Source: Escherichia phage vB_EcoM_E9.1. From it: DNA of 64,000 bases. Location: sequence record PP886230. One strand, given 5' to 3'. Of this stretch, positions 44,041 to 54,625 are shown in pieces. The translations under genes and the position numbers were made by a program. Every line of letters starts with the position of its first letter. Position 1 is the first letter of the stretch. Under the pieces are notes generated by a model that saw only the letters and a list, made by a program, of their open reading frames with translations, searched no databases and was not told the origin of the DNA.

Positions 44041-44111
44041 ACTTCCCTCCTTTATTCATTATACTATATTTAATCAAAAAGAAATGCCAGTACTCAAGTA
44101 CTGGCATTATT
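44041..44111 (-). promoter_or_regulatory. array control element (terminator hairpin + promoter-like box + SD)
   Basis: Minus strand reads GCCAGTACTTGAGTACTGGC hairpin, T-rich tract, GATTAAATATAGTATAATGAATAAAGGAGGGAAGT then ATG. Confidence 0.6.
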
Positions 44112-45254
44112 TCAATAAACATCCCAAGGTAATGGGGTCTTCCTAAATCCATACCTGGTTGTGCTCGCACCATCTCCAGCAATGTATCGACCGATGCCAC
44201 ATTGGTATAACTCTGTACTACTACATATAGCACCACCAATAGTACCACTACCCCACTGAATTATATTAGAATATGTTATTGGTAAATCACTACATTTAGT
44301 ATATACACCAACGGTAGCAGCACCACTAATACCACCAAACATGCTTCGGTTAGCACCAGTGTAATATATACCATCTGGACTCATAAATGCAGAGGTGTAC
44401 GTTGTACTACAATCCACTGGACTTCTTATAGTATTAAGATCGCCAGGGTATGTTCTAGCAGCATATACGTAAACATTACCATCAGTAGTAATACCATTAC
44501 CCAACTGACCACTGTTCTGACCACCACACGTAACTAACGATGCAGAACCAGAAACAATTGCAGTAGCATTATACGAAGTACCCATTGCAATAGAAGCACC
44601 AGACAATAGTTTTGGTGTAACGATAGCTGTTGTATTACCCTGGCCTAATTCACCATTTGTGTTTCGTCCCCATGCGTATATAGAAGTCGTATCCAATCGA
44701 CATAGTACTGAACCATAACTAAACGTATATCGCATGTCATTTACAGCAGAAGGCAAATTAACCTTAGTTGCAACACTAATAACACCACCAGTAACACCAC
44801 TGTTTGCGTTCATGTTACGACCATATGCATATAAAGAACCATCTGAAGTTTTAATATGCATCATACCATCTGTGCAATATAATGCATCGATGCTATCCAC
44901 CGCAACCGGACCCATACTGGCAGTTATATCGGTCCATCCAAGAGTAGTAGTACTAGAAATTAAGTTATTTCCTGCGTAAAGGATTCTATTATTATTAGTA
45001 ACTACCACTGTATATCTAGCAGTAACTCCAATTAATCGAACATCAGTATATATCTTAGACCACGCACCTAGTGAATTGGTATTTGCATCCAAAAAGCCTA
45101 ACTGCCCATCTGTATTGTATCCAATACCCCATGCATCACCTGCACTGTCCAATAACACTTCATGTGAAAAGCCAATCTTAAAATCTTTTATTGTAGGAAC
45201 TACCGGAACTGGTGCAATATTCCCGTACTTAACCATTCTTCCAAAAGGTAACAT
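44112..45254 (-). CDS. RCC1-like repeat protein, array member 9
   Basis: ~381 aa from MLPFGRMVKYGNIAP; motifs TDGQLGFLD, TNGELGQGN, NSGQLGNGI. Confidence 0.8.
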   Translation of the reverse strand: MLPFGRMVKYGNIAPVPVVPTIKDFKIGFSHEVLLDSAGDAWGIGYNTDGQLGFLDANTNSLGAWSKIYTDVRLIGVTARYTVVVTNNNRILYAGNNLISSTTTLGWTDITASMGPVAVDSIDALYCTDGMMHIKTSDGSLYAYGRNMNANSGVTGGVISVATKVNLPSAVNDMRYTFSYGSVLCRLDTTSIYAWGRNTNGELGQGNTTAIVTPKLLSGASIAMGTSYNATAIVSGSASLVTCGGQNSGQLGNGITTDGNVYVYAARTYPGDLNTIRSPVDCSTTYTSAFMSPDGIYYTGANRSMFGGISGAATVGVYTKCSDLPITYSNIIQWGSGTIGGAICSSTELYQCGIGRYIAGDGASTTRYGFRKTPLPWDVY

Positions 45255-45325
45255 AATTCCCTCCTTATTCATTATACTATATTTAATACAAATAAGAAAG
45301 CCAGTATCAAGTACTGGCCTATATT
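45255..45325 (-). promoter_or_regulatory. array control element
   Basis: Near-identical copy of the ~70-bp element (hairpin GCCAGTACTTGATACTGGC variant). Confidence 0.6.
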
Positions 45326-46063
45326 TTAGACTGAATTGTTAGGATAATATCTCCCACGTCCCCATATTATTCGCACAGCACCACCACCAGCAGCCGTATA
45401 AGAAAAATTATCCCATATACTACCACCACCACCATACATCTTACCAGCACCACCACTACCAGCACCACCATTATATGAACCATCGTATCTACCGCCAATA
45501 CCATTAGCACCTTGAACAATGATACCAGTACCACCACCCGTACCAATGAACGAGGTATTATAGAATGCACCACCACCACCGCCGCCGCCAGCACCATTTT
45601 CACCAGTGATTGCATCTCCGTTACCACCTTTACCAGTGTAGCCACCAGCACCACCACCAATGACTGCACCACCACTTACACCAGCGTTGCCCCCATTACC
45701 ACCACCATCATTAATAGCGTTAGCAGCTTTCCCACCTAGTCCACCAACCCTATATTCACCAGTGAAGCTAACACATAGTTTTTCAGTTCCACGATATAAA
45801 CCGTTTTCAACTGCTGTAGTAGTGTTGGGATGTGTAAGAGAAACACTTAAGTACTCACCACCAGAAACCGGAATATTATTACGCCACGATAAGCCGCCAC
45901 CAGCACCACGTTGACCACCCGGCGAAATAACACATACTGATATTTCGGTAACGCCAGCAGGAACTGTAAATTGTGTTGTTCCTATTGTCGTGATTAATTG
46001 TTCACCATGTGGCTTATATTCAATTTTATTCCCGTACTTAACCATTCTTCCAAAAGGTAACAT
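45326..46063 (-). CDS. glycine-rich protein with array leader, array member 8
   Basis: ~245 aa from MLPFGRMVKYGNKIEYKP; long GG.GG.G low-complexity tracts (GGNGGNAGVSGGAVIGGGAGGYTGKGGNG..GAGGGGGGGAF); no RCC1 motifs. Confidence 0.7.
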   Translation of the reverse strand: MLPFGRMVKYGNKIEYKPHGEQLITTIGTTQFTVPAGVTEISVCVISPGGQRGAGGGLSWRNNIPVSGGEYLSVSLTHPNTTTAVENGLYRGTEKLCVSFTGEYRVGGLGGKAANAINDGGGNGGNAGVSGGAVIGGGAGGYTGKGGNGDAITGENGAGGGGGGGAFYNTSFIGTGGGTGIIVQGANGIGGRYDGSYNGGAGSGGAGKMYGGGGSIWDNFSYTAAGGGAVRIIWGRGRYYPNNSV

Positions 46064-53397: not shown

Positions 53398-53466
53398 AGT
53401 TCCTCCTTTATCATTATACTATATTTAATACAAATAAGAAAGCCAGTATCAAGTACTGGCATCGTA
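53398..53466 (-). promoter_or_regulatory. array control element
   Basis: Near-identical copy. Confidence 0.6.
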
Positions 53467-54576
53467 TTACTTGGGTAATGGAATTGTGGTCCATCTATTT
53501 GCGGCAACGTCACCTGGTACATATGTAGGACTACCACTTACAGCAATAGTTTCATTACCATCATATACAACACTGAAGTTTGTGCACGTATACAACGCTG
53601 CGGCATCTGGATTGTAATTTTCAAGTGTTAGTGTATTGGTGAACAAATTCAATGCAGTAGTTGAGCCGTTTTTACCATATGCACCTGTAGTATATATCTT
53701 TCCTTCTGTTGTTGAGTACATATTAACATATGACCCAGATGATGATTTAGCAATTTTATCTATCTTGCTATCTATTGTTTTAGAGTTAAATTGAAATGGA
53801 TATACCTGTACGTTAGTATCTAAACCATTTCCCAGTTCCCCATTTAACTGCCACCCTGTGTGGTACATTCCCGCATTTGTATATGCAAGCGTACTATACG
53901 CATTACCACCCATTATTTTAGTGCCAGATAATTTTAAACCAAACGATGTCCACTTACCAGTTTCATTTCCTATGGAACCATAAGCACTTGTACCACACGC
54001 ACGAAGCTCGCCATTTGACGTTAGAAGCACTGTATTATTAACGTTACCAAATATATCAATAACCTGATTAGTGCCATTATTCAGTACTGAAGTAAAAGTA
54101 CTCTGTGAGTAAGTACTACCTGAACCAACAGAACCATTTGTGTTCATACCTCTTCCATATACAATTTTACCATCAGCACTAACATAGTGCATTGAATCAA
54201 AACCAATGGATATCATTTTAATATCAGATATATCTGGAAATGAAGAAGTTACATCTACTCCACCTAGTGGAATTGTATTATTTCCTAAACCTAATGAGAC
54301 ATTAGTTCCGTGCATTATAAATTTATCTTCTTTAAAATATAAAATATTATATCCACCAGCCCATGCATTATTAACGCCATTTGTAATCAGTACCCATTTA
54401 TTTTGTGTAGTAGTTCCAGTAATATTTAACTGTTGATAGTTATTGATTCCACAACCATATAGCGATCCATCACCATATAGTACATATAAATTATCATATC
54501 CTGCAATAACTTTCTTTATTTTTTTGGGTACAGGTGCTACATTCCCATACTTTAACATTCTTCCAAAAGGTAACAT
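53467..54576 (-). CDS. RCC1-like repeat protein, array member 1
   Basis: 369 aa; leader MLPFGRMLKYGNVAP; motifs NGSVGSGS, NGELGNGL. Confidence 0.75.
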   Translation of the reverse strand: MLPFGRMLKYGNVAPVPKKIKKVIAGYDNLYVLYGDGSLYGCGINNYQQLNITGTTTQNKWVLITNGVNNAWAGGYNILYFKEDKFIMHGTNVSLGLGNNTIPLGGVDVTSSFPDISDIKMISIGFDSMHYVSADGKIVYGRGMNTNGSVGSGSTYSQSTFTSVLNNGTNQVIDIFGNVNNTVLLTSNGELRACGTSAYGSIGNETGKWTSFGLKLSGTKIMGGNAYSTLAYTNAGMYHTGWQLNGELGNGLDTNVQVYPFQFNSKTIDSKIDKIAKSSSGSYVNMYSTTEGKIYTTGAYGKNGSTTALNLFTNTLTLENYNPDAAALYTCTNFSVVYDGNETIAVSGSPTYVPGDVAANRWTTIPLPK

Positions 54577-54625
54577 TATTTTCTCCTTTATTCATTATAT
54601 CATATTTACCTCCTAACGAAAACCC

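Follow-up and report, generated by a model that had tools for sequence, protein, structure and literature searches.

In T4-like phages, small composite cassettes that combine a terminator with a promoter have been described as PeSLs (promoter-early stem-loops) (Arbiol et al. 2010, PMC2839356; Comeau et al. 2014, PMC4122927), and an analogy between PeSLs and integrons has already been drawn (PMC2839356). T4-type late promoters form a second point of reference, with the sequence TATAAATA and the proteins gp55, gp33 and gp45 (Geiduschek and Kassavetis 2010, as cited in PMC5259590). For the jumbo-phage clade studied here, ATAAATA late promoters were predicted in the CBB paper, with the motif in both GAP32 and CBB, and no gp33 or gp45 homologues were reported (PMC5259590).

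Here, we analysed a 64,000-nt stretch of Escherichia phage vB_EcoM_E9.1 (PP886230), hereafter the window, which comes from an Asteriusvirus-type jumbo coliphage (121Q/PBECO4 group). The window contains an array of minus-strand genes, or cassettes, that are joined by a repeated element. We think it likely that this joint consists of a terminator, a T4-type late promoter and a leader with a Shine-Dalgarno (SD) sequence, and that the cassettes are late units shuffled by homologous recombination.

Results

The cassette array and its gene starts

All array genes start at ATGTTACCTTTTG, and the ORF-extended starts at 45272, 46081, 49918 and 50957, which an earlier sequence-only reading had used, are wrong; the four cassettes concerned now extend over 44112-45254, 45326-46063, 48617-49756 and 49827-50936. 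That reading counted 12 array genes, of which 11 are intact MLPFGRM genes while a frameshift divides the twelfth into 41390-41614 and 40462-41358. Ten of the 11 intact cassettes encode RCC1-like beta-propellers and the remaining one encodes a Gly-rich protein. The flanking array proteins are 25-38% identical from residue 17 onward. The coding starts had been described as identical over ~45 nt; this is true of the first 21 nt, which are invariant except at position 14, but the first 45 nt as a whole are 76-98% identical.

A conserved junction element

The near-identical ~70-bp element claimed to precede eight array genes is real (Table 1). Alignment of the eight minus-strand copies, which are 69-71 nt long, gave pairwise identities of 88-98.5% with a median of 94%. 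Each copy is laid out as a hairpin with a T-tract, the box TTAAATA-TAG-TATAAT, AAGGAGG and then ATG. A 31-nt string covering the AT box and SD matched the window seven times (<=3 mismatches) compared with none in 100 shuffles, and the eighth copy was missed because it has a 1-nt deletion. The composite motif (hairpin, T-tract, AT box and AAGGAGG in 69-71 nt) has 8 copies in the window and 63 across eight genomes.

Three genes had been thought to lack the element and to form sub-operons. Two of them, 49827-50936 and 41687-42856 (starts 50936 and 42856), are indeed coupled to the upstream neighbour across an 8-nt gap, but the third, 42865-44040, has an element of its own (44041-44111). The C-to-A coupling is kept in 7/8 genomes; cassette A of 121Q carries a full element instead. 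The two halves of the element are also found apart, with the promoter half alone before the first gene and the best T-run hairpin after the last intact gene.

Table 1 Cassettes and junctions of the array, in window coordinates.
Feature	Position	Strand	Details
Cassette array, 11 genes	41687..54576	-	each starts ATGTTACCTTTTG (MLPF[GA]RM.KYGN.AP)
Promoter/SD half before first cassette L (53467-54576)	54577..54608	-	GGTAAATATGATATAATGAATAAAGGAG; without terminator hairpin; TAAATA late motif and extended -10 (TGATATAAT) both present
Full element, 69 nt, between cassettes L (53467-54576) and M (52219-53397)	53398..53466	-	hairpin 53442-53460; TAAATATAGTATA 53415-53427; SD; ATG at 53397
Full element, 71 nt, before cassette C (50945-52147)	52148..52218	-	hairpin 52192-52214, extended ATGCC...GGCAT stem; predicted late box 52167-52179
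Coupled junction C to A	50937..50944	-	8-nt gap; SD ATAGGAGGGAAT overlaps C end; no hairpin, no AT box
Full element, 70 nt, before cassette D (48617-49756)	49757..49826	-	hairpin 49802-49820; predicted late box 49775-49787; TATAAC-AA variant
Full element, 71 nt, before cassette E (47397-48545)	48546..48616	-	hairpin 48592-48610; predicted late box 48565-48577
Full element, 71 nt, before cassette B (46135-47325)	47326..47396	-	hairpin 47372-47390; predicted late box 47345-47357
Full element, 71 nt, before cassette I (45326-46063)	46064..46134	-	hairpin 46108-46128; predicted late box 46082-46094
Full element, 71 nt, before cassette F (44112-45254)	45255..45325	-	hairpin 45298-45320; predicted late box 45273-45285
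Full element, 71 nt, before cassette J (42865-44040)	44041..44111	-	11-bp hairpin 44083-44108; predicted late box 44060-44072
Coupled junction J to G	42857..42864	-	8-nt gap; SD ATAGGAGGGAAT; no hairpin, no AT box
Degenerate element after last intact cassette G	41615..41686	-	hairpin 41659-41681, one G.U pair, 7-T run; then CCTAAATATAATAACGA, GGAGG, ATGCTACCC of split cassette H
Cassette H (twelfth, split by +1 frameshift)	40462..41614	-	head 41390-41614, 74 codons; body 40462-41358, 298 codons, RCC1-like

The hairpin resembles an intrinsic terminator

The terminator-like character proposed for the hairpin is supported: it lies directly past the stop codon, is followed by a T-tract (TTTCTTATTT or TTTCTTTTT) on the minus, sense strand only, and stands alone after the last intact gene. 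The same junction hairpins are annotated as ARNOLD terminators in the record of Escherichia phage vB_EcoM_G17 (MK327931.1), at -10.1 to -12.8 kcal/mol. The stems have 7-11 bp with 4-5 G-C pairs, the loops have 3-5 nt, and the UUUCUUAUUU tract follows. The hairpin had been called perfect, which describes the 8-bp GCCAGTAC/GTACTGGC stem in five window copies, whereas three copies have a 7-bp stem and the loop CTTGA. Every copy is predicted to fold into a hairpin (MFE of the whole element between -14.4 and -18.5 kcal/mol, z = -2.5 to -4.0), and the window has 16 terminator-like sites against 6.6 +/- 2.6 expected, nine of which are the minus-strand junction hairpins. Because the junction stem is invariant, covariation support is absent; the variant stems across the eight genomes lead to sense-strand G.U pairs in three cases and to a C.A mismatch in one. 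The T-tract is interrupted (TTTCTTATTT), suggesting that termination may be partial.

The AT box resembles the late motif of the lineage

The comparisons also support a promoter-like AT box with a strong SD, and most genes as predicted separate units. The T4-late-type alternative raised for this box gains ground from (A)TAAATA with an A/T motif before virion genes, both in the lineage and in the window, and from a gp55-like late sigma in the lineage. The element box resembles the T4-like late motif of the lineage, (A)TAAATA followed by A/T-rich sequence, which was found before a range of virion genes, among them those for sheath, tube and baseplate. The tail tube gene is preceded by a hairpin, a T-run and GCTAAATAAAGTATAATG, gp524 by CATAAATATTTCTATAAT, and the wedge gene gp537 by a hairpin and TTTTCTTTTTGAATAAATATTTCTATATATAAT. 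In PBECO4, TAAATA occurs 15-70 nt upstream of 11/16 structural genes vs 2/9 named non-structural genes (Fisher p = 0.04), a modest enrichment in which the structural set comprises only genes with an upstream gap of at least 40 nt and the classes follow database annotation. The two non-structural genes with TAAATA encode endonuclease VII and a spanin, which are usually late genes by analogy with T4. The motif also precedes homologues in other phages: in GAP32, a hairpin, a T-run and GGGTAAATACTAG stand upstream of the single-copy homologue, and Salmonella phage 7t3 has TAATTAAATATATG.

In the arrays, TAAATA is unchanged in each of the 63 full copies, and the first-gene copy and the degenerate H copy have this core as well. 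The internal box ATTAAATA matches the T4 sequence TATAAATA at 6/8 positions and the lineage ATAAATA at 6/7. Internal copies read TTAAATA, one mismatch from ATAAATA, and this T is found in only 1/21 reference late upstream regions. A TATA(A/T) block 3-4 nt downstream of TAAATA is common in the lineage; in the window, TAAATA-N3-4-TATA occurs 11 times compared with 3.0 +/- 1.7 expected. Nine occurrences are within the array, and one, AATAAATACGTTATAAT, lies upstream of the lone minus-strand virion structural gene 7401-8555. As for the sigma factor, gp530 of PBECO4 is a gp55-like late sigma that matches the late sigma families phrog_12791 and phrog_234; its gene lies outside the 64-kb window, so that the evidence for this factor concerns the lineage rather than the isolate itself.

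Cassettes are exchanged at the joints

The idea that the repeated joints serve as recombination substrates can be seen directly in eight related genomes, each of which has its own cassette order on a ~99% identical backbone, eight orders in all. Over window 1-25000, this backbone is covered to 96-98% at about 99% identity in 30 records, whereas no record covers at least 80% of the array in one place. When breakpoints were located in the related genomes, the junctions mapped to the element itself or to the first ~45 nt of coding sequence. 121Q and ELP-22 each lost cassette E in a separate event; the crossovers lie at different points, both inside the joint. Orthologous cassette bodies are 97-100% identical while the first 48 nt are 75-90% identical, and the best-matching relative differs from cassette to cassette. 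In the four-gamete test on joint sites, 32/36 site pairs showed all four gametes. In the seven relatives with parsed arrays, the number of full elements per genome equals that of full array junctions. Comparison of these close relatives shows whole genes gained, lost and re-joined at the joints; the exchange of whole cassettes at a defined joint explains how the locus that varies most among Asteriusvirus genomes changes.

Cassette products and their common N-terminus

PF00415 and PF13540 score above the cut-off in several cassettes and PF25390 gives partial matches; phrog_4219 is matched as well. An AF2 model is all-beta (pTM 0.76). Cassette I (45326-46063) is Gly-rich and not RCC1-like, with the same N-terminus as the others. 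Mass spectrometry of phAPEC6 virions found orthologues of cassettes E (93% identity), F (85%) and J (85%), and of cassette G (100% identity over the 160 residues compared). The N-terminal peptide MLPF.R..Y.N.AP is kept in GAP32, 7t3 and related phages although their DNA has diverged, and it is partly kept (MLPF) in the more distant Yersinia phage fHe-Yen9-04. These observations make the peptide a candidate virion-targeting tag of proteins that are now labelled 'DNA condensation'.

Discussion

In the arrangement that we propose, the GCCAGTAC/GTACTGGC stem and the UUUCUUAUUU tract would end the transcript of the upstream cassette as an intrinsic terminator, and TTAAATA, with no -35, would serve the downstream cassette as a late promoter whose A/T-rich start region reads TATAAT by chance. 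A short leader with a strong SD (AAGGAGG) and the ATG would follow. Late in infection, host core RNA polymerase with the gp55-like late sigma, encoded outside the window, and not with the RpoD-like sigma at 13352-14317, would start ~6-8 nt past TAAATA, leave a leader of ~20 nt and stop at the next hairpin. Under this scheme, most cassettes would be late genes with a monocistronic transcript; the two pairs C-A and J-G would be bicistronic. The array products are virion-associated proteins with a common flexible N-terminal peptide of ~15 residues. The 71 nt of the element and the first ~45 coding nt form a homology patch of ~115 nt, which is present about ten times over. As the genome comparison shows, whole cassettes are deleted, added, reordered and re-headed when these copies undergo general homologous recombination and gene conversion with one another, and any recombinant array should still be expressed correctly because every cassette has its own predicted promoter and terminator.

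The AT box could instead be a sigma-70-family promoter with TATAAT as its -10, which would make the cassettes early or middle genes read by host sigma-70 or by the RpoD-like sigma that is encoded within the window. We regard this as improbable, even though TATAAT is perfect in 51/63 copies, the first-gene copy has the extended -10 TGATATAAT as do presumed non-late PBECO4 promoters (gp105, gp539), and TATAAT lies 3-4 nt past TAAATA in several other late-type boxes, so that dual recognition is conceivable. A sigma-70 consensus, either a TTGACA-like -35 at 16-18 bp or a TGn, was absent from the internal copies and only the first-gene copy has TGATATAAT. The hexamers at that spacing are TTTCTT/TTCTTA, matching the -35 consensus at 2-3 of 6 positions, and TAG takes the place of TGn before TATAAT. 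The critical final T of the -10 is lost in the 12/63 copies with TATAAC. A start set by TATAAT would fall ~10-11 nt before the ATG, on the SD. A consensus scan called no TATAAT-based promoters in the junctions, the second-class -35 of the CBB type (TGAAACG) is absent from them, and the array products are virion proteins. The suggestion that the sigma encoded at 13352-14317 reads the box through TATAAT is therefore not upheld.

A slightly less probable arrangement is one late operon that starts from 54577-54608 and has no internal promoters. The hairpins would then be leaky attenuators or 3'-end stabilisers or processing sites, and gene conversion, together with a role in starting translation, would account for the conservation of the AT box, the SD and the 5' coding stretch. 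The interrupted T-tract points to weak termination, an SD alone suffices at two junctions, the U-tract can pair with the SD in read-through RNA, which hints at translational effects, and concerted evolution is clearly active. However, the invariant box core TAAATAT is the motif that precedes non-homologous virion genes, and it has been kept both by the degenerate H copy and upstream of homologues from distant genera; the layout of hairpin, T-run and TAAATA recurs at unrelated late genes, and 121Q has a full element in place of the coupled C-to-A junction. It is far less plausible that the hairpin acts at the DNA level, as a cruciform or as the target of a recombination or nuclease protein, in a dedicated movement of cassettes. 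Similar speculation came from the PeSL authors (PMC2839356). The stem is a perfect palindrome, invariant across 63 copies, and the loops occur in reverse-complement pairs (AGA/TCT, AAA/TTT, TCA/TGA, TTGA/TCAA, CTTGA/TCAAG) even at orthologous junctions, which implies that the hairpin folds, or is processed, as DNA. Loop flips of this kind can, however, arise when the template is switched at inverted repeats. Moreover, crossovers are found over the whole ~115-nt homology, in the SD spacer and at the 5' end of the coding sequence as well, rather than at a single site, neither the ORF list nor the record annotations note a recombinase gene beside the array, and only on the sense strand does a T-tract come after the hairpin, as an RNA terminator would have it.

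A bolder extension of the joint of terminator and late promoter, which we offer tentatively, is that the array is a dedicated module-exchange locus for proteins exposed on the virion. The ~115-bp joint would be a portable adaptor for recombination and expression at once, and the N-terminal peptide a universal docking tag by which any product, beta-propeller or Gly-rich, is mounted at the same site of the jumbo virion. If true, close relatives would alter the repertoire on their surface through cassette swaps and not by point mutation, and in this way perhaps also their adhesion or host range.

Among described systems, the G17 annotation concerns the same hairpins at the same junctions and likewise treats them as putative terminators, but as isolated ones, and the shared promoter/SD half is not annotated there. 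In the literature examined, we found no discussion of this half or of the role of the joints in array rearrangement. Integron cassettes, which are flanked by attC, are similar in being interchangeable single-gene modules with a short, repeated, hairpin-forming joint. An integron, however, has an integrase and single-stranded attC recombination, both of which the array apparently lacks, and its cassettes share one Pc whereas every array cassette would have its own promoter; exchange in the array apparently proceeds by general homologous recombination over the whole joint. The box is similar to T4-type late promoters in its A/T-rich -10-like motif, the lack of a -35 and its position ~30-40 nt before virion-gene starts, and the lineage shares with T4 a gp55-like sigma and a motif upstream of sheath, tube and baseplate genes. 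They differ in that the internal array boxes read TTAAATA, one mismatch from ATAAATA, and in that a TATA(A/T) block 3-4 nt downstream is common in this lineage. The joints offer a way of defining the late promoter of the clade and how its two sigma factors share their work.

Of the described systems, the PeSL comes nearest, and the junction element is a late-promoter, array-restricted variant of it. Both are small conserved intergenic motifs that combine a stem-loop terminator, a promoter and an SD, both occur in many copies concentrated in a hypervariable region, and in both the indel and replacement junctions between near-identical phages lie inside the motif, also between the -10 and the ATG. 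Every module is transcriptionally insulated in both, which for the array is a prediction. They differ in promoter class, which is late here (TAAATA, gp55-type) and strong, sigma-70-like and early in PeSLs (-35 and -10), and in distribution, as the junction element is confined to one array while PeSL motifs are spread over hyperplastic regions. The flanked genes are paralogous virion-protein genes here and unrelated ORFans in PeSLs, and only here does the homology reach ~45 nt into the coding sequence, as the shared N-terminal peptide. PeSLs also give rise to excised mini-circles when flanking motifs recombine. The PeSL idea of composite motifs as recombination joints, which concerned early ORFan regions in T4-like phages, is thereby extended to jumbo phages and their late array of virion-protein paralogues.

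A shared joint within a variable gene array

By megablast, the window groups with Asteriusvirus, the ~350-kb jumbo coliphages (121Q, PBECO4, slurp01, SP27, SHEFM2K, G17 and phAPEC6). In 30 records, positions 1-25000 are covered to 96-98% with an identity of about 99%, whereas for 40000-55000 no record has at least 80% coverage in one place and the best is 70% covered at 95%, indicating that the array lies where an otherwise conserved genome varies most. A minus-strand search for ATGTTACCTTTTG identified 11 array genes that start MLPF[GA]RM.KYGN. RCC1-like repeat proteins are 10 of the 11 products; the Gly-rich product of cassette I has no Pfam match. 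Four of the gene starts used in the sequence-only reading, which were taken from a mechanical ORF list, are upstream in-frame ATGs and not the true starts.

That reading had described eight near-copies of one control element and, on alignment, we indeed found eight near-identical intergenic gaps of 69-71 nt (88-98.5% pairwise), each with a terminator-like hairpin and T-tract, a TTAAATA-TAG-TATAAT box and an AAGGAGG Shine-Dalgarno sequence (SD). The flanking proteins are only 25-38% identical past residue 16; a nucleotide identity of 74% for the paralogue bodies, obtained by global alignment, was inflated by gap settings, and protein identity was taken instead. The 31-nt AT-box/SD string has seven matches at up to three mismatches, compared with none in 100 shuffles. 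The gene of cassette J, which had been thought to lack the element, was wrongly excluded.

Among phage records, the 71-nt element is present in 35 only, all of them jumbo phages from this group, of Escherichia or Salmonella, with 3-12 copies each, and in seven of seven parsed relatives the copies equal the full junctions in the array. An IMG/VR scan with the AT-box/SD string returned a single 348,532-bp contig and no new contexts. The element is therefore confined to the array rather than being a mobile motif spread over the genome.

Positions of the array genes, their junctions and neighbouring features in the window
Feature	Position	Strand	Remark
Gene 1, cassette L	53467-54576	-	
Gene 2, cassette M	52219-53397	-	
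Gene 3, cassette C	50945-52147	-	
Gene 4, cassette A	49827-50936	-	
Gene 5, cassette D	48617-49756	-	
Gene 6, cassette E	47397-48545	-	
Gene 7, cassette B	46135-47325	-	
Gene 8, cassette I	45326-46063	-	
Gene 9, cassette F	44112-45254	-	
Gene 10, cassette J	42865-44040	-	
Gene 11, cassette G	41687-42856	-	
Split cassette H	40462-41614	-	head 41390-41614, RCC1-like body 40462-41358
Coupled junction, 8 nt	50937-50944	-	SD as in the elements
Coupled junction, 8 nt	42857-42864	-	SD as in the elements
Partial element	54577-54608	-	promoter/SD half only, before first gene
Degenerate element with the end hairpin	41615-41686	-	7-T run and degenerate box, 3' of last intact gene
Divergent promoter region	54577-54679		TTGACA-17-TACTAT at 54626-54654 (+)
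Second tandem array	54680-59471	+	small paralogues
Further hairpin	39785-39804		between plus-strand genes 39406-39777 and 39819-40481

The putative terminator half

Folding predicts the GCCAGTAC/GTACTGGC hairpin in every copy, with stems of 7-11 bp and loops of 3-5 nt; over the whole element, the MFE is -14.4 to -18.5 kcal/mol (z -2.5 to -4.0). Only the gene-sense strand has the T-rich tract 3' of the hairpin. A scan gave 16 terminator-like sites where 6.6 ± 2.6 were expected, 9 of the 16 being the minus-strand junction hairpins, and the G17 GenBank record carries these hairpins as ARNOLD terminators (-10.1 to -12.8). Because the stem is essentially invariant, covariation is uninformative; the variant stems over eight genomes include three with sense-strand G.U pairs and one copy with a C.A mismatch. 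No known RNA family was matched by Rfam (E <= 1, 39500-55000), and a candidate at the end hairpin was due to chance (22.6 bits vs a gathering score of 50). With the loop fixed at 5 nt, as in the form first proposed, the hairpin had zero matches because the loops are 3-5 nt, and a flexible-loop pattern was substituted.

The hairpin loops (44083-53460 in the window, and in relatives) vary also between phages of ~99% identity at orthologous junctions, and come as reverse-complement pairs: AGA and TCT (five each), AAA and TTT (three each), TCA/TGA and TTGA/TCAA, with CTTGA found 22 times and its reverse complement TCAAG once. This suggests that the loop has been repeatedly inverted between the perfect stem arms, via template switching or cruciform processing. 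The further hairpin listed in the table has a junction-type core (CCAGTACT...AGTACTGG) and its T-run on the minus strand; the equivalent site in G17 is annotated as a plus-strand terminator. In read-through RNA (e.g., across junction 49757-49826, minus strand), folding predicts that the U-tract CUUUCUUAUUU pairs with AAUAAAGGAGG in the SD region downstream. This pairing is seen in MFE folds, with a low ensemble frequency and no covariation. If it holds, the SD would be free only in RNAs begun at the internal promoter, which we offer only as a lead.

The putative promoter half

We compared the box with regions upstream of annotated genes in 150 kb of PBECO4. Virion genes there have (A)TAAATA about 36-42 nt 5' of the ATG, usually followed 3-4 nt on by TATA(A/T); these include the sheath, three tube genes, the adaptor, gp521, gp524, the baseplate hub, gp531, gp535, the wedge gp537, gp538, gp540 and gp546. 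Several of these late-type sites lie directly 3' of a hairpin and T-run, as at the tail tube (GGGGCTTTTTTTATGCTAAATAAAGTATAATG) and the wedge (GTGCTTTTCTTTTTGAATAAATATTTCTATATATAAT), and the array element (GGCTTTCTTATTTGTATTAAATATAGTATAATG) has the same layout. When only PBECO4 genes preceded by a gap of >=40 nt are counted, 11 of 16 structural genes have TAAATA at -70 to -15, vs 2 of 9 named genes that are non-structural (p = 0.04). The two exceptions, endonuclease VII and spanin, are usually late genes, by analogy with T4. The presumed early/middle genes gp062, gp070, gp105, gp530 and gp539 have TTGACA-17-TATAAT or TGnTATAAT. The CBB paper (PMC5259590) predicts the same three promoter classes for the clade and gives ATAAATA for the late one. 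An RNA-seq paper on the relative PA5oct reports TTGAC/TATAATA promoters only, with no late motif, and the literature yielded no transcriptome for an Asteriusvirus.

Within the window, TAAATA-N3-4-TATA occurs 11 times (3.0 ± 1.7 expected), nine of them array copies. One other hit, at 8580-8592, lies 5' of the virion structural gene 7401-8555 (phrog_10468), the sole minus-strand gene of the plus-strand early region, whose upstream sequence (8556-8600, minus strand; AATAAATACGTTATAAT) has a TAAATA-N3-TATAAT box as in the array. We infer that the box would serve as a late promoter with TAAATA as a -10-like motif, in which case its TG/CA polymorphism falls on the first bases of the transcript, which should tolerate it. 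The alternative, that TATAAT acts as a σ70 -10 element, is argued against by the absence of a -35, by TAG at the TGn position, by TATAAC in 12 of 63 copies and by a predicted transcript start that would land on the SD. A σ70 consensus scan showed no excess of promoter-like sites (76 vs 78 expected), and zero TATAAT-based calls in the junctions. The gp55-like late sigma in PBECO4 is gp530 (phrog_12791/phrog_234), and the sigma at 13352-14317 in the window is RpoD-like (phrog_351).

The RCC1-like array adjoins a second, divergent one, in which about two dozen paralogues of 59-75 codons are tightly packed; these begin MN..E.Y and end ..LKLI or ..LIYRY. They are phrog_11711 by the SHEFM2K annotation and vary in copy number among relatives. 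The TTGACA-17-TACTAT sequence between the arrays is a candidate σ70-like promoter of the small genes and points away from the adjacent late-type/extended -10 box that precedes the first RCC1-like gene.

Cassette shuffling at the joint

Comparing eight arrays, with cassette proteins clustered at >=70% identity, we found that cassette order is unique to each genome and that the cassette joined to the flank promoter (L, O, M, E or C) varies by phage.

Order of the cassettes in eight arrays
Phage	Cassette order
Window	L M C A D E B I F J G H
SHEFM2K	L M C A D E B N F K G H
G17	O C A S E P B I J Q K G
SP27	M C A D E B I F J K R G
121Q	E P A D B I T F J K R H
slurp01	O L M C A D E B N F Q G H
PBECO4	C A D E B N F U V H
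ELP-22	L C A D B I F J K G H

Both 121Q and ELP-22 have no cassette E between D and B, but their crossovers are not alike: at the D-B joint, the SD spacer is E-type (AAAT) in 121Q and B-type (ATTT) in ELP-22. E was thus lost twice independently, both times inside the joint (the element plus the first ~45 coding nucleotides, ~115 nt). Variable-site pairs across the joint show all four gametes in 32 of 36 cases. Both results agree with the earlier proposal that the repeated 5' regions would be substrates of recombination for cassette shuffling. Between phages, the identity of orthologous cassettes is 97-100% in the body and drops to 75-90% over the first 48 nt (L, M, A, E and K), and the nearest relative differs from one cassette to the next. 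Cassette 5' ends are exchanged among paralogue haplotypes. Truncation or a frameshift affects several cassettes of the relatives: N has 59 codons and then ~1.07 kb, K has 269 codons and then 380 nt, and J of 121Q has 68 codons. The array therefore also gathers pseudogenised cassettes.

The shared N-terminal peptide

Gene conversion is evidently not the sole cause of the 5' coding conservation, since the split cassette H retains MLPFGR through synonymous codons (CTA and CCC) and homologues in other genera keep the peptide while the DNA has diverged: GAP32 gp001 (MLPFSRIIQYGNIAP), Salmonella phage 7t3 (MIPFARILTYGN, MIPFTRILNYANIAP and, in an annotated structural protein, MIPFSRLLTYANTAP) and Yersinia phage fHe-Yen9-04 (MLPFPIISNT). 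The AF2 model of cassette E (pTM 0.76) is an all-beta body apart from residues 1-17, whose pLDDT is <50. Virion mass spectrometry of phAPEC6 detected gp549, gp005, gp006 and gp010 (PMC7247149 Table 1), the orthologues of E (93% identity), F (85%), J (85%) and G (100% over the 160 residues compared), respectively. The peptide, conserved, flexible in the model and belonging to proteins with orthologues in virions, is thus a plausible tag for docking on, or targeting to, the virion.

Cassette H itself is split by a +1 frameshift: a 74-codon head, conserved in SHEFM2K, 121Q, slurp01, PBECO4 and ELP-22, begins MLPFGRIITSS and closes at a stop, and the RCC1-like body resumes in the +1 frame, with the shift confined to ~20 nt (AAGATCTATGGGTTCGGGTA). 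Either a pseudogene or programmed frameshifting could account for this.

Comparison with known joints

The element is real and looks like a functional composite joint that would combine a terminator, a late-type promoter, a ribosome-binding site and a shared N-terminal coding stretch. Its architecture is ordinary among the late genes of the phage, and the terminator half is already in one public record. Neither the joint as a breakpoint of RCC1-like cassette shuffling nor the predicted late-promoter identity of its box is described in the papers examined; those on Sharanji, fEgEco12 and JP4 leave the element undiscussed. The recombination pattern matches that described for the promoter-early stem-loops (PeSLs) of T4-like phages, which are composite terminator/promoter cassettes (PMC2839356, PMC4122927). 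In contrast to PeSLs, the array element differs in promoter class, is confined to one paralogue array and has homology reaching into the coding sequence. We classify it as a variant of the PeSL-type joints.
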